From Psammoneis japonica (taxonomy: Eukaryota), in the NCBI GenBank assembly GCA_008632985.1, contig QPGO01000011.1, positions 186,001-250,000 on the forward strand: a stretch of DNA of 64,000 nt, written 5' to 3'. The position numbers and the translations under genes are program-made. How positions within the stretch are numbered: position 1 is the stretch's first letter; each line of letters starts with the position of its first letter. Below, in pieces: positions 1,528 to 59,100 of the stretch. The notes beneath the pieces are model-generated. The model saw nothing but the letters and a program-made list of their open reading frames with translations. It searched no databases and was not told the DNA's origin.

Positions 1528-1685
1528 CACACCGCGGAAGACAAAGCTCTTTATTTCTCTTCTTACGTAGCACAACGTTTGATGTCCCCAGAATATCCGA
1601 CAATTAACCGGTCTTAAACTTCTTAGATGCCGTACACAGTGTGCAACCATCATGCAGGTGTCTTCTTTCGTTCTCGCCAGATGTC

Positions 1686-1890
1686 GCTGAAGATTCATGG
1701 ACAACAGCTTCGCAACAAATGTTGCTAGGAATAGATGCATCCGAACCCACACCTGATCAGGACCTGTCTGGACTCACACAGCTGAAGATTCATGGATGCC
1801 AGCTTCACAACAAAGATCACTGGGAATGGATGAGACAAGTGGCATCCGAACCCACACCTGATCCGGACCTGTCTGGACTCACACAGTTGC
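1686..1890. repeat. About 100-bp imperfect tandem repeat; related segment repeated at about 3830-4075
   Basis: GCTGAAGATTCATGG...CATCCGAACCCACACCTGAT..GGACCTGTCTGGACTCACACAG occurs at 1686-1784 and 1781-1889. A third core sits at about 3831-3878, and 1970-2070 matches 3970-4070. Confidence 0.85.
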
Positions 1891-2249
1891 AGTGAATTGA
1901 AAAACGGGTGAAGATTCATGCCTGGCAGAACTCACCACAGTTGGTGGCACATTCTCAGATGGAAGCACTCGGAGAAGCTGACATGGCTTGCAGACAAGCT
2001 GGCAGTTCTTCAAAGCAATGCTTGGCAGATGGTTCTTTGGTGATCTGCAGAAAGCAGCTCAGATGCTTTGCTTTGGTGTCTGCTTCATCCATTGTGCTGT
2101 GTCACATTCCTGTGCACAACAACTCCAATCCAAAGCAGTTGAAACAAAAATGAATGTCAAAGCAGGCCAGTGCAAAAGAACCCTCCCCGTGCACAGTTCG
2201 TCCATCATTGTTCCAAGTTTTTCCAATTCCGTCCTCTGCATTCTCAGAA

Positions 2250-2620
2250 TTGGGTGGTGAATGAATTTGTCCTGGCAACACAACAACTCCCAGATAGCCC
2301 CAACACAATTCTCCAGGCGACTGGCAAAGTCATCCTCATTCTTTCCAGCAGGGCCGCATGAAAGGCAAAGAGGCAGCATGCCTGCCTTGTTGGGGCTCAA
2401 CAGTGCCGGTTTGCACTTGTCTGGAAAAAATCGACAGACTCAACTTTGCCGCCCAGACAAGCCTTGTGCAATGGGAGGTCCCCACAATTGTCTGCAGCAC
2501 AGAATGACAGACCATCAGGCTCTTTCCACCTGTTGCCACATTCGTCCAGGGCCCGAGCCTCCAATGGAAAAAACATTGGATGGCCTTTGTCAAATGAAGA
2601 GCTGCCATGGGAGACCATGA
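2250..2620 (-). pseudogene. Decayed ankyrin-repeat protein gene fragment
   Basis: ADNCGDLPLHKACLGGKVESVDF and NKAGMLPLCLSC...GAIWELL lie in adjacent frames and match ankyrin G-x-LPLHxAC repeats. Broken by stops and frameshifts. Confidence 0.6.
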
Positions 2621-5529
2621 GCATGGCCACGGTGATGGCATTGGTGAGAAAAAGGAAGCAAGAGGAAATGAGAGAGCCTGCAAGGGGTGGGATGAAGCTC
2701 CTCTGCTGTGCTGGTGAATGTCCAAAGCTGTGCACTCTGCCTGGCGTGTGTGCTGGTCAAAGATCCATGACCACACAGGCACCAATCAACAAAGAACAAC
2801 ACTCTGCAGGCTTTGCCATGTTGCTTGAAATTGACCTGCCACTTGCACCTGGAAGACTGGTCATGTCAGAACCGGCTCTGACATTTTTTTGCAGATTTCT
2901 GCCCCTCGCCCCACCTGCTGCAACATGTTGACAAAACCCGCCAGTTGTTGAGACTGCGCCAGTCATGGAAGGCTGAAGAGCTCATGATTCTGTGAATTCC
3001 ATGGGTTTCTGGTGCACATGCAGTGACATGGTGCAACCCCATTGGTTTGTTTGGCCACCCCAAAGAAAAGTGCGAGCCTTGCTTGTGCTTTCTTTTTGCT
3101 GTGGTGCCCATTCCTGTCACTGCCACCAGCAGTGTGCATGAATGAGTTCAAAAAACAGTGCTCAGAGGTTGGCCAACAAGCAGCAAGTGTGCTCTTGGCA
3201 CTGACACACACCGCTGCACTGCGCTGGCTCTTTTTGTTCTTTTCTTGCATTGTGCCAATGCTCTCACCCTCTCCTGCACACAGATGGAAATGTTGTTTGG
3301 CTGTGAGCAAGCAGCAGGTGTGATTGACAGAAGTTCCAGTGGGCATTTCTGGGTTTTTTGAGCTCATCTGACTGGCCTGGGAGTCTTTGAGGCTCATCAT
3401 GAGGCAGTGTGCTGAGATTGTCATTTGGAGTTGTTGGAGTCAAGTCACCCAGGAAGACATTCAGGAAAGCATGGCAGCAACACAAGGCCACTCGCTGGGG
3501 CCCAAGCAGCTGTGGCACTCAGTCTCCCAACAGCACCAGAGCAAATGGCAGAGCCTCTTGTCAACTGCTTGTGCTGAAGCAGCAGCAAAGCTTGAGCTTC
3601 ACAGATTGGATTCACATGGCTCACACATGCTGCAGAAGACAACAACAACAACTCTTCTCTTGTCACACTGCAACAATTTGCTGGCAGTGCTTGCTGTCTG
3701 CTGAACAAACAACTGAAACTGCCAGCAAACAAGAGACAGCTTCTTTTGTCCCCATCAGAAGTCAAATTTTGCTGAGTTTCATGGATGCCATGCCAAAGGT
3801 GATGATGAACAGAAGAGACAAGTGGAAGGTGTCTGAACCCACACATGATCTGGAGACCTGTCTGGACTCACACAGTTGTGGTGAGCTGAAAAACAAGTGA
3901 CAACCACGTGCCCAGCAGAGCTCTGGCAACACAGTTCTTGGTGGCACCACTGGTCAGACCAAAGCACTGTGAGAAGCTGACATGGCTTGCAGAAATGCTG
4001 GCAGTTTAGAGCACTTTTTGGCAGATGGTTCATTGCTGATCTGTCGAAAGTGGCTTGGATGCTTTGCTTCAATCTAATTTGTGCACAAAATGCAGCATTG
4101 TTTCCCAGCTGCACAGTCTCGCACAATTGCACCCCACATGCAGGTGACCATGATGAGCTGGTCCCAGGTGTGTGGTGCCACAACCCCCCGGCAGGTGTCT
4201 GCTGCTGTGCACCATCAAAGCTGACCCACCCCAGCCTGCACTGCTGCTGCTGCTTGCAACTCTGGAAATGGCTGGTGGTGCCTTGCCAGGGCAACAACCC
4301 AAATGAGCTGCAGCAAAGTTGATCAAGAAGACATCTGAGCTCACTGCAAAAGAAGAAGAACATTTCAAATGGAGGGGCTGGTCACCACAAATGGATGTGT
4401 GGACTTTGTCAGCAGCACAGCACCTCACATCTGCAAGAAAGAAAATGCAAGCTTCTGCTGCAAGCAAGTGAGGTGTCATCTCCATTTCTCTGTCATTTGC
4501 CCTGCAACAGGAAGCCAAACATCTTCTCCACCAGCTGGAGCCTCGTCATGATGATTTCCTCTCTCTGTGTTTTGAGCATGGAAAGGCAAAGAAGCCATTG
4601 TGTGCACACAAAATGCAGCTGACTTGTCAGGAGGGTCCTGCCCAACTTTCCCAAGTGTGTTGTCTGCACCACAAATGACAAAAAACAAATTTGATGACTG
4701 TGATCCCATGCAAACTCTTTGTGATTTTGAGCAAACTGAGATTGCTCAAAGTCAATCTCTTTGGTTGCTGTCACTTGTTTTCAACAACTTTTTTTTCAAT
4801 GAGCAGCTGCTGCCAAGCTCCAATCAAGACACTTCTTTTGCAGTGTGCTGGCTGAGCAACAACCTTTGTTGCTTGCTTGTGCCACCCAACACAATTTGGC
4901 ACAGTTTTGACTGCTCCTTGTTGCCAGTCCTTCAATGTTGCTTGGTTTGTGCAACAGACCACTCCTTGCCAGCCCCACTGCCTGCAATGCTGGCCCCAGC
5001 AGAGTTGCCAAAAGCCACTCAACTTGATGTGGTCGACACCTCTTTTCCTCCTTCTCTTTTTCCTCTTCGTTGTCAGTGTGGTCTGCACACTCCCTCTTCC
5101 AAAGGCAGCCAGTTGAAGAAACACACAAATGTTCCACTGACACTCTTGAGATGACAGGAGCAAAAGGTCTTGTTGTCTGCTCAACTCAGCAAGGTCTGTT
5201 TTTTCAGTCACTTGCACTGGGCCATGATTGAGAACCAGCTTGATCTGATTGTTGAGCTGCACAAAGCAGTCAATGACACAAGCTGATCATGGTGGGTCAC
5301 TCAATCAACAGAGCCTTTGAATGACAGTGCTGAGATGTGTGCCAGCAGGCCAGCAGGCATGAGTGTTGGCATCTGCTGCTTGGCTGCTCAAAATGAAAAA
5401 CCACCCAGGCAGACATGTGCTCCCCCCCCCATGAGTGGGCCACAAGAAGACTTCAGCAAACTTCTTGAGAATTTCTGGACCTGCTTCATTGGCAGGATTT
5501 TGCCAGCAGCTGTTGCACTTCCAGGTGGG

Positions 5530-5637
5530 GGCTTGACATGGCTGGAAGATTGATTGAGCAGGCATGAGTGCAATGCCACCATTGGCTTGACATGGCTGGA
5601 AGATTGATTGAGTGGGCATGATTGCAACACCGCCATT
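5530..5637. repeat. 54-bp tandem duplication
   Basis: GGCTTGACATGGCTGGAAGATTGATTGAG... at 5530 and 5584. The copies differ mostly at CA/TG/CG sites. Confidence 0.9.
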
Positions 5638-8369
5638 GCCACTTGCTGGGGCGGGACATTGTTGAACTCCATTGTTGCAAAGATTGGTGTGCCTTTGTCC
5701 AGCTTTGCACTTCCACTGGGGGTGGCATGGTTGGATGGACCATCAATGATCAAAGCTGTCACCCAGTGGCACAACACTTGATCATGAAGAGAGTGCTCAA
5801 TTGAGTCAAAACTGCCTTGGAATGATGACGTCAAATGCTGCTGGGAGGCAGGTGCAAATGTCAACCAGCTGGCACCAGTTGCTCAACAAAGAACTGCCCA
5901 AACAAACACCATGGGAGATGCAGTGCTTCCATCCATGAGCAGGCATTGCTGGGCTTGAGGGCAAATTTCCAGCCACCATCTCAAGCAGCAAGGTGGGTCC
6001 ACCCTGGAAGTGGGGCTGCCACCATCAAACACCACACTGCTGGACAGTGATTGGACAACATTTGAAGGCAAGTCAAAAAGTGGGAGCACAATGCAGAAGA
6101 TTGCTGAGAGGCTGCTGGGTGTGGTGCAGAAGGTTGCTGTTTTAGATGGTTTCTTTCACAAAGAGGTCACTGGCACCAGCAGCAAACTCTGTTGTGAGAT
6201 TGGCAACAGGCACCACTTCTTTGCTCAAGTGTGTCACACAACAAACAAGCAGCACAGGAGAAGTGCACCATTCTGTTGCCCTGTTTGCCATTTCCACAGC
6301 ACCACACCAACAGATGCTCAAAACTCCAGATCTTTGGTTTTGTGCCAAGCACAAACAAGAAAATCCTGTTGTGGCAAGGTGCAGCAGACAACCAACTCTG
6401 GGTGCCATTCTTGAGCTAATTTTGCTGTGGAGCAGCATGTGAGTTGCAAATGGCAACAGCACAGGCTTGTCTGGCAATGCAGCCATGCAAATGGCACCAG
6501 GACTGGCCAAACAAAACTGTTTCAAAAATTCATCCATGACATCTGGTGTGCTGGCAAAACAAAGAAGACCTCAACCTCAAGAAAGCAAATGTGGGCCATT
6601 GGCACTGCCACCCTGCAAATCTGGAGTGCTGGTTGAGAAGAGAGCACAACAAGTGAGCAGGGGCAGAAGCACAAAAAACTCCAGACAGTTCATTGCAGCA
6701 CCCAGTTGTGCCAAGGAGGAACAATGCGCGAGCTGAAAGCAGCCTGCTTTCATTGCCTTGAGAAAGGCTTTCTTAAATCAACAGTTCATGGCCAACATGT
6801 CTCCTCTCTCATGAGCCACATGAAGCTGGTTGCAAAATGTCCTTTGACAGCTTGCTGTGGCAGAGCGGGTTTTTTTTGTGTGGCTGGCTTGGCGCCAGTG
6901 GTGGCACCACAAACGTGGGTGCAAAGCACAACGACTCTCAACCACCGCAGTTTGTGTCCATTCTGGCTGTGTTCGTTGCTGGTGCAAGTGGTTCATGGCA
7001 GACCTGAATGCCAAGCATGCAAAAAAAAAAACCCATTGGCGCTCAGCAGGCGCCCCTGCAAGGGGGGACAGGGACAACGGGGCACAGAGCCAGCAAAAGG
7101 CAAAGACCTTGAAGCATCAGCAGTGTGAGTGTGCCAACCTCAGTGGCAGCTGGGGTGCCAACAAGAAATGGCACAGGTTTTTGACTTGTTTTTGCTTGTG
7201 TGAGTTGTCCTGCTCTTTGCAAATCTCAGATGCAAGCTGGGGTGCCCCCCCCCCCCCCCTCCCAAACAGCACTGGGGCAGCCTGGGGGCACTGGTTTGTC
7301 ACATGCTTTGTGAGAAGCCATCCCTCTGATGGAAATGTGCTCAATGAGCTCAAGTGCCACACAGCTTTCCTCCTGTTGCCAAGGTGTCAGAGCCCAAGAT
7401 TTGCTGCCAGGAGCAGTTTGATGTGTGAACGGTGCGAACCCATGTGAAGAAAACAGTCGCACTGCAGTGTGCACTCGAGAGCACGTACGGTACCGTAGAG
7501 AGAGGCGCAAAGATGAATAAATTTTAAATATATAAAACATTCATGTTCTTTTATTTGGAAATATGTTAAGAATCTACAGTGATGTGCGTCTGCAAAGATC
7601 CGACGACTAACCAACGCGCGAACACGCCACACAACAACAAGCATCAAAGAACGAGCGGCTTCACCATGACGCTCGCCGCTCGTATTTATTTGGAAGATTC
7701 GTCATGCCAATACCGGTTCTGACATTTTTGAAAATATCTGGTCCCACTGGAACAAGTTGACGAAACCTGCCAGGCACCAAGAGCACACCAGTCGTGGAAG
7801 AATGAGGACTTTCGGCTCCGTGGATTTTACGTGTTTCTGGTACACGCGTGCAATCCGATGCTGGGATTTCGTTCGCTCTCGATTTGCTCATAATTCTGAC
7901 AATCAACTCAAACTACACGGCAGCGAAATGGGAGAGTTGGTTGTGTTTCTCTTTTGACCATGGCGCTCGTTGCATGGCCATGGGCGTTCTGCGTGCTGCC
8001 GGCTTTGTCGTTGCAGAGTAAGGTACGTGTGTTCTTGTCGTGATTGTGTATCGTGTATCGTGATCGTGTTGCTCCTTTTTGTTTTGTATTTCATCCACTC
8101 ACCTCGCTCTCGCCTTCCTAAACACAGAGACAGAATTATCATTTCCCGTGGTTGTGGGCAAGAAGCGGATACGTGTGACGGAACCATGAGACACTTGTTT
8201 CTATAGGTTGCACGGCGGTCTGTTTTTTTCAAGACGAGGCGATGTACTGATTGTGGTTTGGGATTGAAGTCACCAAGGAGGACACTTTGAAAAGTGCAGC
8301 AGCAATGCGAGGCTACCCATTAGGACTGAGCAGACGTGGTACTCGTTCTCCCAACAACGTTGGATCAAG

Positions 8370-8925
8370 AGACGGCCTCTTGTCGATTGCTCTAACCGAA
8401 GCAGTAGCAAAATCTCGTATTTGAACTTGTTGTGGCTTTTGCTGCCATGGGGCAGCGTGAACGTGGAGGCGGGGTTACTTATTAGGACTTGGATAGACGT
8501 GGCACTCAGTCTCGTAATCCGAGACGGCCTCTTGTCAATTATCCAGACTCGAAGCAGTAACGCGAACTCGCACACGAATTCACAGTACGGAATGTTAGAT
8601 TGCGGGGCCACCTATTAGCGCATGAGTAGATGTGAAGGCTTCAGCCTCTCGTCAATTATTCATAGTCACGAAGCAGTGGCACAACAACTCGCACGCATGT
8701 CCATTGGTTGGGAGAAGAACGAATTTTGCCGCACAGGCAAGGTGGACGTTAGACGGGGCTACCTAATAGGGCATCGGCGGACCAGGCAATCAGCCTTTAC
8801 CGATAGTCACGAAGCAGTAGCGCAACACTCGCCAACGAATTCACCAAGGGGGGCATTACGTCAGTCGTGGGGTTGCCTAGTAGGGCTACCTGTGTGGTAG
8901 TCTCGAAGCAGTAGCTAAAACTCAC
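8370..8925 (+). pseudogene. Degenerate ankyrin-like repeat array
   Basis: GAAGCAGT(A/G) core at 8398, 8551, 8670, 8811 and 8905 with shared upstream GCCTCT..TC(A/G)ATT. Translations SHEAVAQQL, TGKVDV and LLLPWGSVNVEA resemble ankyrin GHEAVV..LL..G.DV. No intact ORF. Confidence 0.4.
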
Positions 8926-14487: not shown

Positions 14488-15456
14488 TCACATGGGTGGC
14501 GGTGGTGGGGGAGGAGGTGGCGGCGGCGGCATGCTATCCTCACTTGGTGGCGGCGGTGGAGGAGGCAAGGGCGGAGGTGGAGGCATGGTGGATGCGGGAG
14601 GTAGTGGCGGCGGCGGAGGCAGCGAAGAAACTCCTCCTCCAACAGCTGGAGGTGGAGGGGGTGGTGGTAGCGGAGGCATGGGAGTGCTCGTCGTCGTACT
14701 GCTAATTGTAGTGACAAGTGGAGTGGTGGGATTGAGCATAGAGGATGCAAATCTCGTGTTTGGCTTCATAAACGCCGTGCCTCCTTGTGCTGCCCGGCTC
14801 TTTGCAGCTGCTGCCGCCAACATTCGTTCGGCACGACTTCCGTGTCGTTCGGGAGGAGCACCAGGAGCTCGTCCTGATTCTTCTGATCCTGTATCTTTCT
14901 TAAAGGCATACTGCACCACAATTTGTCGATTTCCTAGATACTGTTCGTGCATCACATCAATAGCTGCGTCACTAGCTTCAAATGAATCAAAAGACACAAA
15001 CCCAAACCCCCTGCTTTCGTTTGTAACTTCGTCTCGCATAATTCTGGGAGGACGAATCAGGGAACCAAAGGCAGAAAACGTATCATACAAAAGTGCTTCA
15101 TCCACATCCACTGGATCCAGATTTCCGATAAACAAATTAGCTCCCACGTCCCGATCCTTGTCCAAGGCACCACCCGAGTGCAGACTCGATTTCGAGACAC
15201 GAATAGGTCGACCATGCAACTTGATCATGTTGAGTACCGTCATGGCATAGTCCGCATCCCGGACATCGAAAAACTCGACAAAGCCATACCCATTATGTGT
15301 TTGTGTGACTTTGTCTTTGGGCATGAAGACGTTCTGGACGCGACCAACTTGTGTAAACAGCTCCGTCAGCAGCGCCTCGTTACAAGCTGGTTCCAAGTTG
15401 CCAACATAGCAGGTTGCTTCCTGATTGCGATGTTCGACTGTTGTGAGGGATGCCAT
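14488..15456 (-). CDS. SF3B4: Splicing factor 3B subunit 4 (SAP49)
   Basis: [12 protein letters not shown]...GYGFVEF, second [15 protein letters not shown]...[23 protein letters not shown]...[13 protein letters not shown] and a Pro-rich tail. Confidence 0.97.
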
Positions 15457-15699
15457 TGTCGTAGACTACACGATTACATCTAACGAGTGGGCGATAGGAT
15501 GCAGGCTACTCGTATGCTACCTTTGCGATGAGAAACAGGTACTGTAAGACGACGCCATTTGAAGTCGGACGTCTCCATCTCATAACGGTAGTACGTCGCC
15601 CGGAGATCGAAGCACATGGGTTATGAGTTTGTGTGGTCACTGCCGTCTGCCGGTGCACAGCTTGCGGAATGTGGCATGCCTCAGCCGTGTGGCATCTTG

Positions 15700-18600
15700 T
15701 AACTTAGAGCAGCACTCCTTGCAACTGTCGGCTCTGCTGCTGTTGACAATCCCAAGTGTGCCACATGCCAACATGGTCGAATGACTTGTCATCCGACCGG
15801 AGCTGCGTGAGAACTTCCAAGGTTCCTGCAAGTCCGGGTCAAGAAGCTCTCAAGGTTGACAGCGTTCTTTGTCCTGGACAACTGGTTGCCATGGACAAGC
15901 ATGCACCCTCTGTTCGAGGTTGTTTGTTCAAATCTTGTGGCAAGATGAAAGAAGCAGACAAGTGCAGTGGCAGAACTGTTTTTGTTGACATTGCCTCTGG
16001 CAAGGTGTCGCAGCACACACCCCATCAAATTTCGTCTGGTGCTTGCAATGCTGTCAAGAGCAAAAAGGCTTTCGAGAAGGAGGCCACTTCTGCAGGCATT
16101 GTGATTCAAGCCTGTCAATTGGATGATGGCATCTTTGTGAGTGAAAAATTTGCTGAGGAACTTGAACAGGAAAGTCGCAGGGCAGGAAGCTTGCTGGCGC
16201 GTTGTTGGCGCACTTCACCACACCGCCACAGAGTGCAGCCAGGCCACGGAGCAGGCAACTCGTGCTGTTGCCAAAAGAGCACAAACTGTGATGTTTCATG
16301 CTGCAGTTTGATGGCTGGATGCAGCAGAGGGATGGATTTGTGGCCAATGGCGATGAGCCATTCTGTCCAATTGTGGAGCTCAAGAAGAACCCCGCGAGAA
16401 TGGATTTTTGATGAATTGTGCCCCAAAGAAGTCTTCTCAGGAGTGAAAGTTTTTTCAAGTTCAACCTCACAAACTTGGCTGTTTGAGGATGCCCAACCTG
16501 TGTGTTGGATCCAACATTGCAAGATGGCAAGAAAATGCCATGTTGGAAGGCCAGAAGCTGAAAAAGGCCAACTTGTGGGTTGCTCGCCACTCCAACATGC
16601 AAGTGACACATCCTTGGATTGACTCAGAAGCTCAAGAATGGCTCAATGTCAACTCAATTTCCTGCAGTTTGTGACAATTGGTTTGAGATGGTTCACTCAG
16701 ACATTCGGATGACAAGCACAGGATGCCACAGACAGGACTTCAAGATCTTGTGCAGAGACTGCGATGGAGAGGCTTGCAACTGTCACCATCATTGGATGAT
16801 TGGCTTGCTGCCAACCAAAGAGCTGCACAGAAAAGACATGTCCAACAAGAGCACTGACTTGACAGAACAGAGGGAGACATCACCTGGATCATCCAGGACA
16901 CCCTCTCCCCCCCCCCCCCAAGATGATCTTCTGCACAAAGGAGGTTCTTGAGCACTCCAAGATCAAGTGATGCTCCACTGGAGTCTCCATTGTCTCCACA
17001 TTTTGTCCACAAAAAAGTTGCTCCTCCAAGTGTTTGGTCCCCTTTGACTCCAGCTGACTCACCTGAGGCTCAAGAGGGAGATCCCAAAGTTCCAAGGTCT
17101 CCTGAGCCACCTTTGGTTGCTGACAATGATGGCCACCATTTCCCCGCCTGAAGCTTCACATGCTCTGACCCCAATGTGGGTGTGCTCTGACAGAGCAGCT
17201 CATCCCAAGGATCATTGTGTCTTTGAAGGGAAGGATCAACATGGCTGCAATGGACATGCCTGGAAGGGCGTGGCCTCTTTCATTTTGAACTTGTCACATT
17301 GGCTCAAAAGTGGCTGCAGGATGGCAGAATTTGTGAAGATTGACATGACTCATGCAATGTTTGGCAACCTTGATGGCAAAGGTGTCAATGCTGCATGTCC
17401 GTCATCTTCTCATTTGTTGAACTTTTTGTGAGCAAGAAGACCCTACAATCCTGATGCTTGTTTGTGTCATGAAGCAATGGCAGGACCACATGTGCGGAAG
17501 AGTTCAAGAAAGCCATGCATTCTGAGGTCAAATGACTCAATGCTGAGGTGCAACTCATTCACTCCGGTGGTGCTGTGTGATTCAGCACCAACTGTGGCTC
17601 AAATGTTTTGCTTGGTGCTTGGGCATTCAAGATCAAGAGACTCCCTGATGGATGTCTCAAGAAGTTCAAGGCATGCTTCTGTGTGTGAGGGAACCATCAA
17701 CAAGAGGGAGCTGATTTCTTTGTTGTGCATGCCCCGGAAGTTCAGCAGAGTGTGGCTTGGCTTGCTCACGAGTTTGTCAGACATGCGTGGGTTGCACTCA
17801 TCAAGTTGATTGCACCCTTGCTTTTGCCCAAGCAGGCATTGAGAGGATGCATGTGTTGCTTTTGCACAAGCTCTTCTAGATGGAACATGAAGGAGACTGC
17901 ATGTTGAAGCTCAACAAGAGCTTGCACGGGTTGCATCAAGCCATGGCTGCTCCCAGATTCCAACATCTGTCCAAGGGTGGTTTGGAAAAGTGAAGAGTGT
18001 GCACTGCATTGTGGTGAGGGTGATCCTGGCTCGTTTGCTGGTGAAGACAGTGCTTGTCTTGTGTGTGTTGATGGCTGTTTGTTCCTTGTGAAGGATCTCA
18101 CATGAAAATTGGCAACACGTTGTGGGTCAACTCAAGGTGAGTGGCTGCAAACTTGATGTCAAGGATGACACCAACAGCTTTCTCAGTGTCAACATCAACA
18201 GGGATGATGATTCTGGGACCACCCATCTCACTCAAAAAGGCCTCATCAAGAAGATTGTTGCTGCTGCAAATGAGAGGTTGTCGCACTCCAGCCACTCCAG
18301 CTGCTCTGCTTCCTTGGCCACTGGTGCTGCTGGTCCTGCCAGTGTCACTGGCATGATGCTCTGCTTGGCCTCCAGTGTCAGGTCAAGATGGCCTCAAGGT
18401 CACGCCTGAGCCAGGAGAAAGGCAATCCTTTTCTGCAATCAGTTGCCCAATGGGAACAAGGATGACTTGTCCCAACATGCTGCATTGAAAGTTAAGAAAG
18501 GAAAGAAGTGGCCAATGAATCTGTGTGTGTGGGATGCTTCTTTCCATTGAGCTCCCAACAGATCACTGCATGTGGATTGCATCCCCAAAGGCTCATCACA

Positions 18601-18800
18601 CAGCGGTTGATTCCAAAACTGCATCCATTCAGAGTTGCAACCATTTAGGTCATCGTCAAATTTTATGAGTTCATGCTGTCTACCCATGCTGACAATCGAA
18701 GTTGCACATCTTCAAAACACAGGCTTCTCGAGCGCAAAGCAGGTGACATGAGGCCAAGCAGTGGGGATGAACCAAAGCCTTGCCACCAATGGTTCGAAAA
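15700..18800 (+). mobile_element. Decayed Ty1/copia (CoDi-like) LTR retrotransposon: integrase-RT remnant
   Basis: Integrase PGQLVAMD...TVFVDIASG...KKAFEKEA...DDGIF. RT WAFKIKR.PDG..KKFKA.FCVRG, QVDC.LAFAQA, KSLHGLHQA and LVCVDG. Many stops and frameshifts. Homologous to 27900-30400. Confidence 0.9.
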
Positions 18801-19022
18801 CCCTGCGACCAAGCCGGAGATTGGGACAGCCAGCAAGCTAAAAAAATGATTCAAATGCTGCATTTTATCCCAGTTTACTTGTAGCATAGCGTAGAAGAGA
18901 AGAAGACGTCACTGCAACCTACAAACGGCCGGCAAGGCCCCGCAATCTATCATAGCGCCTTGACAAAGTACAACAGATAACAAAACATTTCCAATTGCTA
19001 AATTCTCTGTTTTAGATCAAGT

Positions 19023-20303: not shown

Positions 20304-20689
20304 TCAACTGAATACGTGCCATAATCCATCACCATGACTTCCTCATTCCCCGTTTCCCGAAAACACCGACCGCGGAGATGAGACAATACCTTCGGGTTCG
20401 CCAGGCTAGGCACTGAGTATCCTACAGGCACCAGAGGGGTTCCTTGTACGTACCGGTAGGGCTACCTCTGGGTTCACCAGGCACTGAGTTGAACATCTAG
20501 ATCGCGGGCTACGACTCAACATTTAACATTGGCTCGTGGTTCAGTCGCGGGTCAAGCACTTTCCTTTACAACAACATGAGTCGAGAATTGATGGAGGAAT
20601 TCTCTGGACAGCCACATTGTCTGGGTTCGGATTGGAAAAGAACTTCCGAAACAATCAATTGTCATGCTTCTCATTGAATCACAGGTGAA

Positions 20690-23600
20690 TTGTCAACAAT
20701 TGTTGGGGTTCTGACAACTCTTCTTGTTTTGCACTTGCTCCGATCCGACCCTTCGAAACAATTGTGCGAGATCTTCCTGATCCTCACTCTGACATCGTCT
20801 CATAAAAAGTTGTTCCTTCAAAACTGTGTGAAAACTCTCAGCAAAGTCTGCAATTCACTTGTGTCCTGTCATGGCCTTTTTAGAGAATTCAAGCATTCAG
20901 CCATTTTTTTTTGCTTCGTCATGCTGCTCTGACGGTTGGTGGGTGGGTGTGGTTGAGCTGTTGTCCACAGCATGCAGTCAAATCACCCTCCTCAAGTTGA
21001 CGCTTTGCCTTTTGATGTGGAGGCCTTCTTCAAGGCACTTCCAGAGTGCCGTGAAGATGCTTGCATGATGTTGCGTTCGCAAAACCCGGCAGATGGGGTG
21101 CCAACCCCTCGAGCCGCAGCGTGTGTGTTGACTCTGGCGAGTGAGGCAGTGACACTCTTACCTCGCTCTCTCACTTGTTGTCCACTGTGTGTCCTGGCAG
21201 AGTGGGGGCCAGTGTTGGAGCAGCAGTTAAGATCTGTGGTGCCCCAAGAGCTGCTTGTGGAGCTCGGTCACACACACTGTCTCATTGGGCCGAATTCCGC
21301 CCCGGATGGTTCATTTCTGCAGGAAATGGATCAAACTCGGGACACCACCAGACCCCGTCCCTCCCTTCCAAAGACTTGGGTGGACCAATTTCTTCCTCTG
21401 TGGCCATGACCACAACCAATGTGAGTGACCCCATCCGCTTTGCAGTGGGGCAGTGGAAGTTCGTCATGGACACTTGGGCCGCCATCAGTCAAGTGGCGTC
21501 ATTGCATGCTTCTCCGTCCATCTCTCCCCCGGACAAGGTCCAAGAAGAAGGTTTGGTTCCTCTGGAAATTCAGCCTCAACCCAGTTTCATTGCTTCCCAT
21601 TGATTTGACCCTGAAGAATCGTCGCGTGGTGGACCCAGCGACATTCCAGACCCCTTTCGACCTTCGGGCTCGGACAACCCCTCTCCTGCTCCTGCTCCTG
21701 CTCCTGTGGACCACACTGTTTCATGCCTTGAAGCAAACTGCAAATGCTTGATGTGTCAATCTTGCAATGTGAAGGCTCATCTTCAGGAAGAGGTTTAGAA
21801 CCATGCCCGCTTGCTTCACCGAGTCACCGCTTTAGAGTCCGGTCCCCTCAATTTTTGTGCTGATCTTCACCCTCATGTCAATCGTCTCCAAGACACCCAG
21901 GCACGTGCCATTGAGGATCTCACCCAGCTCCAGAATCAGGTGTTGAGCCCTGCTGGTTCCCTCCATGCCCTCAAGAATGAGGTTTCTGCCCTTGAGAGCC
22001 GTGTCACCATTGGACGTGGAGTTCCTGCTCATGGGGCAAGCTTCAACTGCCCGGAAGAAATCTGTCCCTGGTTGTGCCCAGTTTCAAACTCTGTGACAAT
22101 CTTTCATGATGCTGTGTCACTGTTGCATTCCATTGGAGCCACAACCTCTTCACACAAGAGTGCTTTGGTGATGATGAAAGCACAATGAGATGTGAAGATC
22201 TCATGTGACATGGAAGCTCGGGTCATCACTTCTTTCTGGACGAGTCCACCTTGGATCTCATTCAACACTTCTGTGGAAGGAGATGCGGCAGAGGATTGTC
22301 AACGGCTTTCCTCTCATCTTCAGAAGTGCTCCAACTGGCATGCAGATGATGGTGCATCTGGTGCATCTCAATGCATGCTTCGTGGGGCTCTGGAGGTCCA
22401 GAATCGGGTGACATTCCTTGCCCACCAAACCACCACCAATCCTCATGTTCTTTGGTTGAGTCAGGGCATGCTTGCAGACTCATTGAACTTCATGCAGCGG
22501 CTCACATCCTTTGCTGATTGCTGGATCATTGATCTCAAGACTGGCAGTTGCTTTGGTGATGCAGAAGCTTGGGAGGTCATCGTCTGCTCCATTGAGAAAA
22601 TCTTTGAAGACATGAGAGACACCCATTCTTTGATTCAGGACGTCTCTGATTCAGACAAGTCCATCATGGTTTGTGGGTTTGTTGAAGAGTCATGAGGTCA
22701 TGTGTGATTGTCTTGCACATGATTTCAAGAATCACCCTTCAATCAATGGGACATTGCTTCAGAAGATTGTGAATGCAAGTCCTGCCGCCAGTCTGCAATC
22801 CAGGTTGTCAGCCGCAGAGAAGACTGCCAACGCTGATCACGCATCCTTGGCCAATCTCAAGTCTCGGGTGTCGGCTTTGGATTCCAAATCTAAGTGAGCG
22901 GCTCCTGGTGATCCCCCAGGCTTGCCTTCCCCCCTCTCTTCCTCCATTCATCCTTTGTCGAAGGCATCATCACCTCTTGCAAAGGATCATGGACAAGAAC
23001 CAGACATTGCACATTTGACAGGACCTCTTGGCAGATTTGTTCAATTGAGGCAGGGTCTGTGTCTTGTCCAGTTCTTCTTGGATGTGGGCAATCGCGGTGC
23101 ACCTGGTGGGTGTCTCCACGATCAAGCATCTCCCTCTTACCTTGGAAGCAACGAAAAATCTGAAGCAGCTTTGTCAGAAGGGTCTCTTGAATTTTTCAAC
23201 AAGATCCATCATTGGGCATCAACACTTGGCCAAGCTCAACTTCGATTTAGCTCTTTTCAATGTCCCTTGGATTTCCAATGCCCCTCACCACCCATTGATC
23301 TCTTTTCCAGCCCCACTGCAGGTCCATGTCACCCTGTCTGAGATTTGCAACATCTTGAAACCCTTGGGGCATTCTCAACTTTGGTCCCACTCCATGTGCC
23401 ATTGCACCTCAGGGGGAGTTACCTCGTGTTCTATCCCTGTTGCTTGGGTTGGAGAGGGTGGTGGTCAAGTGCAACTCAGGGGAGTGTGTGACATCCTCAC
23501 AGGCCCATGGGTTCTTTCGCAGACAGGGCAGCCCCTTTGTCTTTTGGTCTGACCCGTTGCAGGTTGGAATCTGCACCCCCGGTCTGGTCCACTTCCTTGG

Positions 23601-36480: not shown

Positions 36481-36661
36481 GTCACAACGTCACATCACAC
36501 AATCGACTGTACACAACACTGCAAAAATAAAAAGGAAAGGAAATCAAACAGGCAAGTCTAATTTTCATTGAAATAGTATAGGCTCCCCAAGACTCCAACG
36601 TTTGTCTATGAAATCGTCCATAAGGAACTTGGCAAAGAGCGACAAGTGTCTGCAGCAGAAG

Positions 36662-37312
<651 letters not shown>

Positions 37313-38270
37313 TCAAAAAATATTTCTGTTGAACAGCGCAAGAAACAAGGATCAAGCAGGTGATAGTTAGAAAATGTTACGTTTAACAGAAGAATAGATT
37401 CAAGGAAGGGGCTTTGATTCTCCAACAAGGTGACTCTTGTGTCGGCATTCTGGCATGCTGCTTCAAACGGATCATTGCTCAACTTTTCTTCTGAGCTTCC
37501 GGGTCCTGGATTATTGACATAAACGAATATGATATCGATTATTCAAACTAACGAACACCAACGTTAATTGATGAAAGGAAATGTGACGTCATCGATCCGT
37601 TCAACGGACCCCCACGTCGCGCGATCCCCGTGGCGATAACCGGCAATGACTTTCGGGCCGCAAAGTGCGGCGCCCTCAACGACAGCAGCAAACAATTCCA
37701 TTGATTGCATCTCCACCCATTTTACAGTACTACTAAAGGCTCGGAGAAAGAAAGCTGCGACGGACTCCCTCTGTATTCACTCACCAAGCTTACAACAACC
37801 CGTGAACGACAGCGAGTGAGCTCGTTGGAATGAAACCAGCCGACGACGAAAGATTTCCATGCGCGTGTTTTTCGCGTGTTAGAAAATGACCCTTTCTGGT
37901 ATATCATCTTGTATATTCTACGTACAACGATGACCGTGTGCTGTCGTCATTGAAATCGCGTGGTCGCGCGCGCCGCTACCCCTCCACGATTGGTTGGTCT
38001 GCCGTCAACCGTGTCGGAGGGAAGTTGATGATGAAAAAGATGGAGAAACTGGAAACTGCGTCACAACCAATACCCTGCCAACAAAGAAAGGAGTAGAAAT
38101 CGGTGAAGCAGATCGTAGTTCAAAGTTTGACAAGCAAGTGAGCCACAAAGATTTCTGAATCATACCGTTTCTGTTTTGCAATGAGCCAACACGTTTGGTT
38201 TTCGTCGACACGAAATGCAAGCGCAAGAAAATCCCCTGGATTTGGCGTCGTGCTTCTCTTTCTTGTGCAG

Positions 38271-45297: not shown

Positions 45298-45834
45298 NNN
45301 NNNNNNNNNNNNNNNNNNNNNNNNNNNNNNNNNNNNNNNNNNNNNNNNNNNNNNNNNNNNNNNNNNNNNNNNNNNNNNNNNNNNNNNNNNNNNNNNNNNN
45401 NNNNNNNNNNNNNNNNNNNNNNNNNNNNNNNNNNNNNNNNNNNNNNNNNNNNNNNNNNNNNNNNNNNNNNNNNNNNNNNNNNNNNNNNNNNNNNNNNNNN
45501 NNNNNNNNNNNNNNNNNNNNNNNNNNNNNNNNNNNNNNNNNNNNNNNNNNNNNNNNNNNNNNNNNNNNNNNNNNNNNNNNNNNNNNNNNNNNNNNNNNNN
45601 NNNNNNNNNNNNNNNNNNNNNNNNNNNNNNNNNNNNNNNNNNNNNNNNNNNNNNNNNNNNNNNNNNNNNNNNNNNNNNNNNNNNNNNNNNNNNNNNNNNN
45701 NNNNNNNNNNNNNNNNNNNNNNNNNNNNNNNNNNNNNNNNNNNNNNNNNNNNNNNNNNNNNNNNNNNNNNNNNNNNNNNNNNNNNNNNNNNNNNNNNNNN
45801 NNNNNNNNNNNNNNNNNNNNNNNNNNNNNNNNNN
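45298..45834. other. Assembly gap (N run)
   Basis: 537 N bases. Confidence 1.
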
Positions 45835-49795: not shown

Positions 49796-51236
49796 TTACT
49801 CCTTTTGTGCTGACGACAAGTGAGATATGGGCGGTGGCGGTAGAAAGGAAGAGGCATATCCCGTCTTGGCAGATGAAAATGGAGACTTGCCGTTAGCATG
49901 GGACGCCGCCGCCGCAGCAGCAGCTGCTCGTGTGTTTGTTGCGGACGGAGCAGCATACGCCATGGCAACCGAAGATGAAGTCGTTTCCACCTCGGGAGGG
50001 GGAGGAGGAGGCGGTGGTGGTGGGACAGGTTGGGCATCTTCTGGTGGAGGCGGTGGTGGAGGAGGCGGAACGGGGCCTGGTTCAGGTGCTTTCTCTACTT
50101 GTTCAGCCGGAAGTGGTGGCGGAGGCACAGGATGATCGGATTCGGGTTCAATCTCAGGGGATTCTGCCGGTTCCTTTAGCTCACTCCTTTCTTCTTTAAC
50201 GGTCTCTTCCTCCGGCTTCTTTGGTGGTTGGGGAGGCTGAGGCGCCGCACCATGCAGGTCTGGCAAAGGCATTGCATGAGCTTGTCCTGGTTCAGGCTCC
50301 ATCTCCAACTGAGGCGCCATGCAGAGATGATCATCCGCCTCTTCTGCAGGTTCCTGACCAGGAGCAGTTTTGCTGTCTGTTTCTTTCCCTTGTTGCTGTT
50401 GCTGCCGTTTCCTCGTAACCACTTTCCGTTCAATGGAAGAACCGTTGGTCCCGCGACAGCTCTGTGGCAACCGATGCAAGTATCCAGTCCCTACTTCGGC
50501 TCCCAACAAGCCCTTACCACCCCACGACCATGTCGGCATGAGCGTAACAATTCGCACCACATCAGAAGTCGTGTTATAGACATACAGCTCGACGACTCTA
50601 TCAACATTTGCTTGCAACAAGTTGGCTAAATCCGCCGCGTCTTCCAAAGAATGGCGTGTGGTGCCCAAGAGATAGTCCTGCTCCGGTACCAAGCCAGCAA
50701 TAGCAGCCGGTGAGTTCTTCTCCATGTCTAGTACACGAATCAACCGTTCATCGGCGCCACCATAATTGTCCATTCGAATTGTTACCCCCAAAAGACCAGC
50801 CCCACCCCAATCCTTTTGCGGTACAATGTTAACTAGACGCTTTTCCTGTGATTTGATGTTCCAGACCACTGAAAGGATTACGTACAATAATAATTCGCAC
50901 AAGTTAAACAAAAGCGTGATGACAATAACTAGAAAGAGTGTGATTGCATGTGCGTCCCCTCGTTCCTCACTTACACAACTCCAATTCCTTCCCCACGAAC
51001 TCCTGCAGAAGCCCTGGAAAGTCCACATCGTCGTACTCATCCCCAATCTCCAATCCTTCTGAGCTTCCCAAGAGCATTTTTCCGTTAGCTCCGACGAGGA
51101 AATCAAAAAAGCTCACCAGTCCAGCGGCAGAAGCGGGAGAATTAGGTTGAACTCCAAGCACTCGGTATCCCAGAGTATCAATGCCATCAAACTTGTCAAT
51201 GTCATCTTCAAAGTCGCCACTTGCGCTATTTCCCAT
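49796..51236 (-). CDS. GORASP: Golgi reassembly-stacking protein (GRASP55/65 family)
   Basis: MG N-terminus, GYRVLGVQPNSPA..AGL..FFDF, WGG.GLLG..I, SPAA.AGL and WGG.GLLGAEVGTGYLHRLP tandem PDZ. Intron about 50974-50869. Pro-rich tail. Confidence 0.93.
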
Positions 51237-51519: not shown

Positions 51520-51732
51520 TCCGTAGATGCTACACAAATATCATACCAGAGCCAAAATTCCAAAAAATCGTCACAGCGGCAAATCACACAAAATCTTCCA
51601 TCTCACAAAAAGCCGTGTTGAGGCTGTGAAGTTGTTGTCGTCTCGGCTATTGCTTTCCGCTATCGACAAATTCATCGTTTCTGCTTACTACACGTTTCAA
51701 TGGCATTTAGTATCATATAGAAGACTTTCAAG

Positions 51733-54568: not shown

Positions 54569-54849
54569 TCTCACGTTAAAAAAGCTACAAGCTATTCAAG
54601 TCACCGACCAAAAGATACAAAAAGCTTTACTTCGAAAGGATTCTGTTGTCAGAAATAAATGACACGTTGACCAAAAGGCTGGAAGATTTGAGAAAGAGGG
54701 AGCAAACTTCGTTGACCACGTCGGAAGCAAAAAACGCGACCTTCTCATTCTTGCTTTCGTCATCAAACTTGTGACGTCACATCTCATCAACTTATGTATG
54801 TACACACTGTACCGCATTCCCCCCCTTGTTCCAACACCAAAGCCAGCAA

Positions 54850-57800
54850 GAATGTGTCATGACAATCATCGTACAATGCTGGCATTTTCACATCAGAGGA
54901 GGCTGAGAAACGTGTCACTGGCTGGAAATTACAGTCTCACTGCTTAAGTCTGGTGGCTCAAGCTGGCTGGCATTGTGCCCCCAACACCATTTTTTGTGCC
55001 CCATCTCTTCGTCTTTTCTTCAAAGAAGTGGAGAGCCACTCTCTCTCCTGTTGCAAGTGTGTCTGCCATGTTGGAGCACAAGGTTGGATCACATGTGTTT
55101 GACACAAATGATTGCCAACTGGAGTTGGCACAGCCACATGATTTTTGGTCCTGCAATGCAAGAAACCCCTGTCTTTCAAACAAGAAGAAGGGCAGCAGCT
55201 GCCAAACAAAAGATGCCTGACCCTGACCCCAACCTCAACCTCTCTCTCGAACGGACAAACAAAATTGGTGAATGGTTTCTTCAAAAATTTGGCTTTGGTT
55301 TGGCCATGCACAGGGCAATGGCTTCTGTGGTCAGAAAGACATGCTGCGATGCGATGTCGCCACACAGATCATTTGAGTGCCACCGCTGTGTGATCTGCCT
55401 GCCAGGAAAACAAGTGTCATCATGCAGAGGCAATTTTGGCATGTGATGTGCACCCTCCATGAAGCTGCTCTCTGCCATTTTGCAGCCTGATCCTCTCCAT
55501 CTTCTTGGTGGGGGGGGGGGTTCTCCAGCCAGCTGCTGGCTGAAGAACATTGTGTGGAAGTTGCGCTGAAACAGTCTGTCGATCTGTGTGTCAGGGGGGG
55601 GTTGGTGAATGCAAGACAGACTCAACGTCTTTTGTGCATGCAAAAATTGTGCTGACAAAACCCCCAAACACACTGATGAGCAGATTTTTTCCAGCCAGCA
55701 GCTGGCTGGAGAGACGTCCCCCCCAGTGTCAGGCAAGATCATGGAAGAAGCTTGTGCCTTTTGAAGATGCATGTGCCTCTGTCTGCAGTCTGCAGTTTTC
55801 CATGAAGCTGTTCCAGCCAAGCATTTGCAAACATGAGGAGACCTTCTTGTGCAGCATGGCCATGACACAATGGGAAGAGATGCCACAAGAGTCGCACCAC
55901 TCTGTGGCACATTTGACAACTGCAGCCACCACATGACCTGTGCAGCCAAAGCAGTGGTGGTGACATGGTTGACAATGCCAGCCAAAGGTGGGTTAAGAGC
56001 ACAGCTGCACTGCACTGGTGCCATGTTGTTGTTGCAAGTCAACAACAGCACCAGAGGACAGCTGCTGGCTGCTGGCTGGCTTGTTTTCTTTGCCACGTCA
56101 AGCAACTGCCACATCAGACAACTGCCAATTGTTTGATTGCTGGGCATCTGCAAGCATCAACATCATTTGTGCTGCACCATCTGCTGCATCAGACACATGC
56201 CAATTGTTTGATTGCCACAGATCTACAAGCACTCTGGCATTTTCCAAACAATGGTGAAGCAAATTTGATGTGCAACATCATTTGTGTTTTGAGCAATGTT
56301 GTGGTGAAAGTCTTTTGCATTTGTCTTGTGCCAAGCCAGCTCACAAAATGAAAATTTTGGCATCAGTCAAGAAGCACCCTTTGCAACTGCACTCTGCACT
56401 CAGGTTGTGGAAGGTGAGTGCAGAGCACAATTTTCTGGCTTTCTTTACAAACAAACAGCCTGAACAAATTGCATTGATGCAGTGAACCATGATGCTCCAC
56501 AAGAAATGGCCTTTGCAATGAAAATTTTGGAAAAATCTGTGTGTTCATGGTTGTGTTCTGCAGATGTCACCAGAGAGTGGAGCTGCACAAAACAGTGTCA
56601 AAAGTTGCCAATGGACGACCCAACAACTGAGCTGCAAACTGACATGAAACAAATCCAAAGTGCTTGAATTTTGCAATGACAAATCAAAAAATGCAAAATG
56701 TCACAGCCCACTGCTGCAGCTGTTGTGGGGCACTGTTCTGTCATGTGACATTGAATTTTGCCATGACACATCAAAAAATGCAAAACATGACAGCCCCCCT
56801 GCTGCAGCTGTTGTGGGGCACTGTTCTGGCTGTCATGTGACATTGGTCTGGACAAGTGGCACATGTCTGCAGAGAGTGAATGGGAAGCATCATGGTTGGC
56901 CGGGCAAGACAAGCTTGCTTTTTGCCAAGAGGGTGTGGTTGAGAAGCAACCTCACCATCCTCTGTGATGTTTTTTGTCTGCCTTGCACATTTTTTCATGC
57001 AGGGCAATTAAAAAATGATGTCTTTCTTCTTTGGTTGAGCTTCTGTTTAAGGCTCAGTCCTCACAACACAAGTTCTCTTCTCTCCTGTGCTGAACTTGCC
57101 AAGCCACTCACTTGCGCCTTGGCCCTGTCATGTGGCCAGCTTGCAGACCTCCCAAGCTGGGAGTGGTGAGTGGCTTCTGCCAGAGTGCACTTTTCAGAAC
57201 TTCTTTCAATGCTGTGTGCCACAGCCACAACTTGCTCACTCTCTCACTGGCTCTCTCCTCACAAGAAGCTCTTCACAAACAATGCAGTGCTCCACGACAC
57301 TCCAAACTGAAAACTGCCACACTGGCGCCAGCAGGCTCTCTGGCAGCCTCACACTGACAATTCACAAAAGGAATCTACACACAAAACTTGACCACCATGT
57401 GCAATGTTTCTCTGTGGGAAGAGAGTGTGGCGCTGGAGCAAGATGATGACACTGGCCCATGTTTCTTGCTTCTGCAATGATGCAACCTTTTTTCTTTGCT
57501 CAGCACCCAACCACAGTGGGTGCAAAGCTCTTCTTGCTCTTTTTTGGCTTTCAGAATGTGTTGATTTCCCTCTTGGTCTTCTCAGGATTTGAGACAACTG
57601 AACTTGCTGGTGAGGACAGGGTTGTGGCATCTCCACACCACAGTCTCCTCCATCCAGCACAGAGAGCTTGTCATCATGCTGCCTCGTGCACACACTGATC
57701 TGACAAATTGAAAATGACCAAAGTGCGCCGCACTTCTCAAGCACTCTGTCTGCACTGCTGCTGCTTGTCAAAACTGCTCCATGGGTCAAAACCTGCATTT

Positions 57801-59100
57801 TCTTCTTTGAGACTCAAGGTTGGTGCACCATCCCCACACACATTGTTTTGGTGTTTTCCATGCATGTGGGGAAGAAGCCACATGACTCTGACTTTTCTCT
57901 CACATGAGCTGCTTAAAAACAGCTGCTCAAAGCAGCTGAGTCAAGGGCTGGTCATCACATCCAGAATCTTGCTCACTTGCCAGTTGGTCTTGGTGAGTTG
58001 AACTCTTGAGACAGAAAGAAGCAAGCATGTTGAGTCAGCTTGAGAGTGCAGAAGCACTGCATTTTTCAGCAGTCCAATCCAGCCATCAATGACACATTGC
58101 ACATGCTTGTTGCACACAATGCCTTTGGCTGTTTCAACTTGAAAATTGGAGCTCATGACAAACAATGCAGCAATGCTTTTGGGACTGTCATGGCATGCCA
58201 CAGGCCCAACATCTCTGAGCTTCTCATTGTCAATCCACCCAAAAAAAAACAAGAGCTTCTTTGCCAGCATGCATGTCATTGAAAACAAACAAGGAGAGCA
58301 TGGGCCACTCTTCTTGCAGTGAACTGAGTTTGCTCAACATTGTTGCCAGTGCCACAGCACAGCATTCAGTGTCACAGCACGAGGCTGAAAATCTCCCTCC
58401 AGCAAAACATTCAAGCAAAAGATGCAGCTTCTGTCCTGGTCTGTCAACACTGAAGCATCTTTTGCAGCAACTGCACCTGTTTTCTGAGGCATGAAGGAAG
58501 ATGCAACAAAACAGTGATGCCAAGAGGCAACAGCAGAAACGGCTGCTGACATTGAGTGCTGGTGCACTCATTTTCATTGCCAAGGCTTTTTTGTCACTGT
58601 CAGCCTTGTTGGACACATGCAGCACTTTTTAGAGCAATCCATGTTGGGAGTGTTTCAACTTTGGAGGAAGTTTGCAGAAGAAACTTTGAACCACCTGACC
58701 ATGCAACAAGTTCACACTCTGGCTCAAGCTCTGCAGGAACACAACAACTGTTTGCTGCTTTTGAACCCAATCTTGTCTGACAGTCTGGAGAAAGAGAGTT
58801 GTGGAGATGTCACTGTGCTTGACAAGCAACAACAACAGCCAAAACTCTCAGGAGGTGAGCTTGTTTTTTGAAACGGTTTTGCTGCTTCTGAATTCTGTCT
58901 GACTGTTGCTTGCCATGCAGCTGAGTGGTGAAGCCCCAAGCATTGGGGGACAAGGAGAGTTGCAAACACATGCCCATGCATTTGATGAACTTTCTTCTTG
59001 ATTCCGCACCATTCTTGACACCCCATGAAGAACCTGAGAAGGCTGTTGTTGAAAGGTGCCCGCAGCAACATTTTGAAGTTGTGCCACAATTGGTGGGTCC
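54850..59100. other. TpA/CpG-depleted hypermutated block 5 (unidentified decayed element)
   Basis: Very few TA or CG over 4.2 kb. Internal duplications at about 56105-56235 and 56665-56845 differ at TG/CA/TA sites. Confidence 0.85.

Follow-up and report, generated by a model that had tools for sequence, protein, structure and literature searches.

TpA-free blocks with Ty1/copia remnants in the diatom Psammoneis japonica point to TpA-directed hypermutation of mobile DNA

Hypermutation directed at a single dinucleotide has been reported in the chlorarachniophyte Bigelowiella natans, in a preprint (bioRxiv 10.64898/2026.01.13.699255). According to that text, Illumina resequencing of B. natans lines placed 231 of 302 new mutations in two regions made up of integrated nucleocytoplasmic large DNA virus (NCLDV) and virophage DNA, where all but one of the mutations were A>G or T>C, all of these at TpA, at about 1000 times the background rate. 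The same text describes clusters throughout the genome that are poor in TpA, rich in CpA and TpG and enriched for reverse transcriptase and DDE domains; the signature is active in some lines only, which its authors read as regulation, and they name an ADAT2-like deaminase as the candidate enzyme, adding that ADAR favours U before the edited A (bioRxiv 10.64898/2026.01.13.699255). Diatoms and CpG do not come up in its main text. As described in PMC2621366, fungal repeat-induced point mutation (RIP) changes C:G to T:A mostly at CpA and creates TpA. Diatoms methylate transposons at CG, and their DNMT4 is related to the fungal RID/DMTA enzymes (PMC9998398), a kinship that bears at most on the CpG part of the pattern reported here. 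In the literature searched, which lacks most subscription journals, we saw neither TpA loss nor hypermutation described for diatom transposons, and the passages searched of a Phaeodactylum tricornutum retrotransposon paper and a mutation-accumulation paper (PMC2806351, PMC6604790) do not mention the signature. Here we describe a 64,000-nucleotide stretch of the diatom Psammoneis japonica (GenBank assembly GCA_008632985.1, contig QPGO01000011.1, positions 186,001 to 250,000 of the forward strand; hereafter the window) in which long blocks, two of them containing Ty1/copia retrotransposon remnants, have lost nearly all TA and most CG. A first-pass annotation of this DNA had stated that it knew of no described eukaryotic silencing system with such a signature; the TpA>TpG/CpA hypermutation reported in the B. 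natans preprint puts this statement out of date.

We set the limits of the blocks from the gaps between successive TA dinucleotides and calculated expected counts from base composition. B1 (1732-7486, no strand assigned) has 7 TA against 355.5 expected and 51 CG against 363.3; B2 (15705-18839, + strand) has 7 TA against 200.6 and 45 CG against 190.9; B3 (20567-31145) has 30 TA against 688.8 and 163 CG against 629.5; B4 (33935-36510, no strand assigned), which lies between two copies of a Rab GTPase gene, has 10 TA against 165.4 and 30 CG against 156.5; and B5 (54945-59111, no strand assigned) has 9 TA against 284.5 and 28 CG against 237.2. B3 is divided into a left part, B3a (20567-27200, no strand assigned), in which TA is erased and CG partly lost, and a right part, B3b (27262-31026, + strand), which makes six sub-blocks in all. 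When the five blocks are pooled (26,212 bp), 63 TA are observed against 1698.6 expected (observed/expected 0.037) and 317 CG against 1577.8 (0.20), while TG (3021) and CA (2785) stand at about 1.7-1.9 times expectation. Outside the blocks, the 37,251 bp of the window that are not N have 1538 TA against 2527 (0.61) and 2087 CG against 2136 (0.98).

Sliding windows give the same picture, with TA at 0.00-0.07, CG at 0.05-0.5 and TG and CA at 1.4-2.2 of expectation in the blocks, and TA at about 0.4-0.85 and CG at about 0.7-1.3 outside them. The G+C content is 0.48-0.50 in blocks and flanks alike. The effect is local and its edges are step-like: at each of the ten, 20-40 bp suffice for TA density to pass from zero to normal or the reverse. 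CG recovers slightly less abruptly than TA, and the TA and CG boundaries roughly coincide. The five blocks poor in TA and CG and rich in TG and CA that the first-pass annotation had proposed are thus real, with edges within about 100 bp of those it had given, and its observation that the neighbouring genes are normal also stands. A scaffold gap, a run of 537 N at 45298-45834, skews the composition windows at about 44.5-46.5 kb.

We then asked what the blocks are. Among 204 stop-to-stop open reading frames (ORFs) of at least 70 aa, Pfam recognized gag_pre-integrs at 27717-28085 (4e-6) and RVT_2 at 29661-30032 (5e-8), both in one frame on the + strand of B3b, which follows the order gag-pre-integrase, integrase, RVT_2 and pol C-terminus. 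A 291-aa ORF of B2 (15747-16619) matched 423 integrase-bearing polyproteins of a representative library; the 150 that were listed are 24-42 % identical to it. Searched back against the window with tblastn, these 150 copia polyproteins matched only 15601-18382 (+) and 27262-31026, and four further copia relatives gave significant matches only in B2 and B3b, collinear to the polyprotein C-termini. B2 itself is about 75 % identical to 27908-30205. These matches identify B2 and B3b as decayed Ty1/copia elements, B2 being a 5'-truncated remnant that extends from integrase to reverse transcriptase/RNase H. No flanking long terminal repeats (LTRs) were found for either remnant by self-comparison of the window, ordinary or recoded as purines and pyrimidines, and both look truncated.

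The remaining sub-blocks are unclassified. The stop-to-stop ORFs of B1, B3a and B4 yielded only sub-threshold noise against Pfam, and these three gave no copia match by tblastn; B5 had no Pfam family in a six-frame read-through with X at stops. None of B1, B3a, B4 and B5 shows mutual similarity or a paralogue in the window above a reversed-sequence control, purine/pyrimidine recoding included. The proposed coincidence of the blocks with retroelements and duplicated sequence therefore holds for B2 and B3b, which are Ty1/copia and related to each other, and finds no family match or mutual similarity in the other four. Two internal repeats were seen: in B1, 1781-2073 resembles 3771-4069, and B3 holds a perfect-register tandem duplication at 25312-25620 with a 155-bp unit, 99.4 % identical.

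Tyrosine is encoded by TAY alone. Taking the consensus of related copia polyproteins at aligned columns as the ancestral state, we found 19 consensus-Tyr columns, none of which has kept Tyr in the window: 10 are Cys (TGT 6, TGC 4), 8 are His (CAT 6, CAC 2) and one is Val. Other consensus residues are retained at 28 of 41 columns for Phe, 16 of 21 for Trp and 9 of 11 for Cys. Arg is retained at 14 of 44 columns, 13 of them as AGA or AGG; most of the rest are Cys (9), Trp (3), Gln (3) and His (2), the residues that CGN>TGN and CGN>CAN would give. At 204 columns the difference is explained by one unambiguous base change, and the context of these changes could be read. Of the 41 A>G changes, 30 stand after T and 7 after A, and of the 28 T>C changes 14 stand before A. 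C>T, counted 26 times, precedes G in 21 cases, and G>A follows C in 27 of 52. Transversions account for 57 columns. The direction of change is thus from TA and CG to TG and CA, and its context is the dinucleotide, as the first-pass annotation had proposed when it called for A:T>G:C transitions at TA on both strands: 18 of the 19 Tyr columns now read TGY or CAY, and the enrichment of A>G after T (30/41) is the one it had regarded as a test.

The related elements that are intact do not share the deficit. The median Tyr content of the 150 listed homologues is 2.6 %, and an intact 51 %-identical relative from a metagenome scan (L001) has a 2149-aa frame with 54 Tyr and 157 TA (observed/expected 0.41). 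Intact copies as poor in TpA as the blocks, which the first-pass annotation had considered damaging to its proposal, are therefore not what these relatives show. A second comparison comes from B1, where a mutated repeat unit of about 160 bp (3434-3593, +) is 92.5 % identical, after purine/pyrimidine recoding, to 8258-8415, one of two tandem unmutated copies of the unit (8258-8415 and 8469-8583, +) that lie about 0.8 kb outside B1 and have normal TA and CG. The outside copy (8254-8420) has 13 TA or CG sites for comparison, and 10 of them read CA or TG in B1: CG>CA 4, CG>TG 2, TA>CA 3 and TA>TG 1, with six of seven CG changed.

The two copia remnants allow the erasure to be followed after the copies separated. 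Their alignment holds 561 differences, 373 transitions and 188 transversions. Double differences at adjacent positions number 242; TG stands opposite CA in 74 of them, and every other class counts five or fewer. Such a swap needs two neighbouring transitions and is expected when an ancestral TA or CG has been resolved separately in two copies. Set against 441 TG/CA sites, the 74 discordant ones fit independent action if about a third of the TG/CA is derived.

Leaving this signature aside, differences between B2 and B3b are spread evenly over the codon positions (50/307, 46/308 and 43/304, or 16.3, 14.9 and 14.1 %; p = 0.76), which indicates that the two diverged as dead DNA; the blocks also carry frameshifts. 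Simulating ordinary substitution at the B2/B3b level yields about 41 new TA per copy, with a minimum of at least 27 in 500 runs, against an actual count of four in each. TA removal consequently went on during or after the divergence of the pair, that is, after the copies had been inactivated. Read as a steady state, the data give TA a lifetime of about one tenth of the lineage time and, as rough estimates, a rate of change at TA about 200 times that of a given transition elsewhere in the block and a CG loss about 20-40 times background.

The outcome is symmetric between the strands. At the Tyr columns the 10 Cys and 8 His correspond to change on one or the other strand, and a runs test of TG versus CA along the blocks gave |z| < 1.4 in all five, with no strand-coordinated runs. 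Both features are unlike processive single-strand editing. The dinucleotide AA is not depleted in the blocks (observed/expected 1.05-1.63), and so the target is TA rather than WA. The 58 residual TA of the blocks are not a random sample of contexts: 36 of 58 are in YTAR, where 25 % are expected (p = 3e-9), and 3 of 58 in RTAY, where 23 % are expected (p = 7e-4). The YTAR excess and the RTAY deficit hold both against native TA contexts and against TA created by transitions from TG/CA. This bias suggests that the activity has a flanking preference for RTAY over YTAR.

A similar footprint is present in copia proteins from environmental sequence. P0202 and P0271, two 2061-aa copia polyproteins of the same cluster encoded on environmental contigs of about 8.4 kb, have one Tyr each. 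Where the consensus has Tyr, P0202 reads Cys at 8 columns, His at 5, Phe at 4 and Ile at 1, against 12-18 Tyr kept at such columns in six Tyr-normal control polyproteins, and its Arg is retained at 25 of 36 columns. P0202 and P0271 align without indels and have 27 differences, 13 of them Cys/His, and judging from the codons 26 of the 27 would fit alternative resolutions of an ancestral TA. Among 119 longer relatives of P0202, one of which is from Cylindrotheca closterium, none has less than 0.5 % Tyr and the median is 2.8 %. At least one more environmental eukaryote thus has a copia element that has undergone rapid and almost pure TA erasure while keeping its CpG. A metagenome scan for the DNA of the two proteins returned only L001. 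Since TAA and TAG stops are erased along with other TA, dead elements such as P0202 and P0271 can be called as long intact genes. Three other copia polyproteins (P0195, P0275 and P0327) have 0.8-0.9 % Tyr compared to a median of 2.6-2.8 %, with C or H at some Tyr positions, and may be partly erased copies.

P0202, in which Tyr is erased and Arg is kept, is one of several indications that TA loss and CG loss can be separated. In the window, the 20.5-25 kb part of B3a has TA at 0.02-0.14 of expectation and CG at 0.26-0.56. We also compared the window with X1, one of three sequencing runs (X1, X2 and X3) of one sample of one study. Among the 40 differences listed, beyond which there are 368 more, 30 lie in blocks, and 15 of these set CG against TG or CA while none sets TA against TG or CA. 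Being separable from the loss of TA, the CpG part can be read as ordinary decay of methylated cytosine, and the loss of CG is probably a slower process of its own, the decay of 5-methylcytosine (5mC). A single system erasing both TpA and CpG, as the first-pass annotation had it, is not supported by these results: the two losses have estimated rates about tenfold apart, vary from block to block and are uncoupled in the environmental relative.

Several other explanations of the blocks have to be considered. The element families might always have lacked TA and CG, and the intact relative L001 does have a lowish TA observed/expected (0.41). For B2 and B3b such a native composition is ruled out by the Tyr columns, where none of 19 conserved Tyr codons survives and 18 are one transition away, and by the 74 TG/CA swaps between the copies; the median of 2.6 % Tyr in the listed homologues and the 157 TA and 54 Tyr of the 2149-aa L001 frame speak against it as well, and we give this explanation practically no credence. 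A sequencing or assembly artefact, with modified bases miscalled so that TG or CA is written where the DNA has TA or CG, is a second possibility; the assembly is scaffolded and of unrecorded platform, and a strand-dependent miscall would mimic Tyr>Cys and Tyr>His. A de Bruijn contig assembled from X1, 4557 bp long with a word depth of 30.1, matches 20706-25262 with six differences. X1 is not a copy of the assembly, since the two differ by 0.6-0.8 % in gene regions. With a strand-dependent miscall the assembly graph would branch in a bubble wherever a TA had stood, which would have prevented a contig of 4557 bp, so X1 argues against the artefact; the first-pass annotation had regarded TA and CG in place of TG and CA in reads from another platform as damaging to its proposal, and this separate read-derived contig has the same letters as the assembly apart from the six differences. 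X2 contigs cover 11 of 30 bins and X3 contigs none. The same erasure appears moreover in unrelated environmental assemblies and in Illumina-resequenced B. natans lines, and the blocks show ordinary decay, with frameshifts, 188 transversions between the copies and even divergence over codon positions. We therefore regard an artefact as very unlikely. The segment 20706-25262 has a depth of 30 in X1, the flanking gene contigs 46-56; it looks single-copy and is perhaps on one haplotype only, and more of its CG has survived than in the other blocks.

Two further explanations accept the mutations and place their cause elsewhere. Editing before integration would have hypermutated the RNA or cDNA during retrotransposition, in the manner of ADAR or APOBEC, and inserted the element dead. 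Two of the blocks are indeed retroelements, and the TA shift within 20-40 bp at ten of ten edges is what such an insertion would leave. One edited intermediate, however, gives one-sided changes, whereas the sense strand shows Tyr>Cys 10 times and Tyr>His 8 times. Removal also continued in the chromosome, given that B2 and B3b diverged without coding constraint and have four TA each against about 41 expected, and B2, a truncated fragment, is erased right to its edges. We consider editing before integration quite improbable. Alternatively, silent chromatin might impose a passive mutational bias, either through patch repair by a Y-family polymerase at WA or through oxidised thymine (5-hydroxymethyluracil or 5-formyluracil) at TA mispairing with G, in methylated or heterochromatic DNA only. 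5-Formyluracil mispairs with G, the rough coincidence of TA and CG boundaries is expected if a methylated domain defines the target, and the 41 inferred A>G, 30 after T and 7 after A, are compatible with WA. As AA is undepleted (1.05-1.63), though, the target is not WA in general; the estimated 200-fold excess at TA is very large for a by-product, the step-like edges are sharper than spreading chromatin would give, and the B. natans signature, on in some lines only, is read by its authors as regulation. Such a passive bias is in our view unlikely.

Taken together, these results make it probable that the blocks are mobile DNA, inserted in a diatom nuclear genome and now dead, which two context-specific transition processes have rewritten in place. 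The first process would act by A:T to G:C change at TA, a palindromic step open to attack on either strand; TG and CA would result about equally often, with each site resolved independently. It would keep acting on the block, so that newly arising TA is removed again, and would stop within tens of base pairs at the edge. The second would be the slower decay of CpG to TpG or CpA, with deamination of 5mC in methylated transposons as its simplest source. We infer that the first process is driven by an enzyme and defends the genome, and that it is one in kind with the TpA hypermutation of B. natans. The foremost candidate for its chemistry is adenine deamination in DNA, from A to inosine that is read as G, by a deaminase guided by a chromatin or small-RNA mark of the element; we put this forward tentatively, at somewhat less than an even chance. 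It is possible, if somewhat more speculative, that diatoms, and probably algae more widely among stramenopiles, alveolates and rhizarians, possess a chromosomal defence by which the adenines of TA in double-stranded mobile DNA that carries a mark are edited continuously, with an RTAY preference, with boundaries exact to the element and independently of cytosine methylation.

Some of our results weigh against this interpretation or narrow its base. Transposon identity is demonstrable for two of the six sub-blocks, B2 and B3b, the other four being unclassified, and it is to these two that the confinement of the effect to dead mobile DNA, also proposed in the first-pass annotation, extends. The 200-fold figure presupposes a steady state, and its substitution matrix is derived from the B2/B3b pair itself. 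At the seven Tyr columns that they share, B2 and B3b agree in outcome at six (for independent 50:50 resolution, at most one disagreement has p of about 0.06); part of the erasure may predate the split of the two copies, or context may bias the outcome. The consensus of homologues at 30 % identity is a proxy for the ancestor, TA-derived TG/CA is indistinguishable from CG-derived TG/CA outside coding columns, and the YTAR bias is that of 58 residual sites. Finally, X1, X2 and X3 come from one sample whose library type is unrecorded and which is maybe related to the source organism of the assembly.

The sequence between the blocks consists of ordinary eukaryotic genes, among them ribosomal protein L7/L30, an LCAT-like acyltransferase, an RRM protein, a protein kinase, two copies of a Rab/Ras GTPase, GRASP55/65 and AP-4 epsilon adaptin. 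A queuine tRNA-ribosyltransferase ORF has at most 79 % identity to public proteins, and its named matches are all diatoms (Minutocellus, Cylindrotheca, Nitzschia, Eucampia, Epithemia and Entomoneis), so that among the public proteins compared the host has no closely related sequenced diatom. The two Rab/Ras-family genes bracket B4 and bear on what triggers the erasure. Copy 1 (32713-33656, - strand; Pfam Ras 2.3e-61 at 32886-33533) has normal TA and CG, and copy 2 (36488-37421, - strand) is 90.7 % identical to it; over about 950 bp the pair shares 29 TA and 40 CG that are unmutated. As these duplicates keep their TA and CG, sequence duplication is not the trigger. The label "RIP-like" that the first-pass annotation had used, in the sense of a process set off by duplication, does not survive the sparing of this pair, nor the finding that four of the six sub-blocks have no detectable paralogue in the window.

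The duplication of the Rab region is tandem-like (32713-34013 and 36488-37769) and includes a second short match, 33850-34013 to 37617-37769. In run X2 the word depth is 630-727 over 32.7-33.4 kb compared to about 5-22 elsewhere. The RRM protein (14488-15456, -) and the GRASP55/65 homologue (49796-51040, -) both end in long proline-rich tails with runs of P, and the strand opposite the RRM gene gives a spurious glycine-rich ORF at 14492-15250.

If the interpretation given above is correct, TpA-targeted hypermutation occurs in a second, distant algal lineage, where it has reached saturation on retrotransposon remnants and is overlaid by CpG decay. It would then not be peculiar to one chlorarachniophyte and would represent a defence, found across distant algae, that targets both retrotransposons and integrated viruses and can eliminate its dinucleotide altogether. 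Affected lineages could be recognized from their genomes, or from metagenomes, by TA-free blocks with an excess of TG and CA, and by Tyr-free transposon proteins with Cys or His at Tyr positions. Erased blocks hide transposons from homology-based annotation and, as TAA and TAG stops are gone, contain long spurious reading frames. The search for the enzyme moves into a group with transformable species, and a natural editor of adenine in double-stranded DNA would be relevant both to genome defence and to base-editing technology.

How does the pattern in the window compare with the described systems? With ADAR and APOBEC it shares hypermutation of mobile or viral sequences by transitions of the deaminase type. 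Those enzymes act on RNA or single-stranded cDNA and are strand-biased, whereas the changes here are symmetric, without runs and continuing after integration. The decay of 5mC in methylated transposons resembles our blocks in changing CG to TG or CA on both strands and in the blocks only, and it covers the CG part alone. Like fungal RIP, the activity inactivates mobile DNA within the chromosome by targeted transitions at a particular dinucleotide, whichever the strand; unlike RIP, it destroys TpA and leaves G+C unchanged (0.48-0.50, blocks as flanks), and where RIP needs duplicated sequence, here the Rab gene pair is spared and four of six sub-blocks lack a paralogue in the window.

The comparison with B. 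natans is the closest. That host is a rhizarian with integrated viruses as targets, while the host here is a stramenopile and the demonstrable targets are LTR retrotransposon remnants. In B. natans new mutations were measured and here we see an end state, in which erasure has gone further: TA observed/expected is 0.037, compared to a Rho of 0.45 in the B. natans NCLDV region. CpG is lost here too, so that the window departs from the B. natans type, in which TpA only is affected. What the two have in common is A>G and T>C change at TpA, giving TpG or CpA according to strand, within surroundings that are normal.

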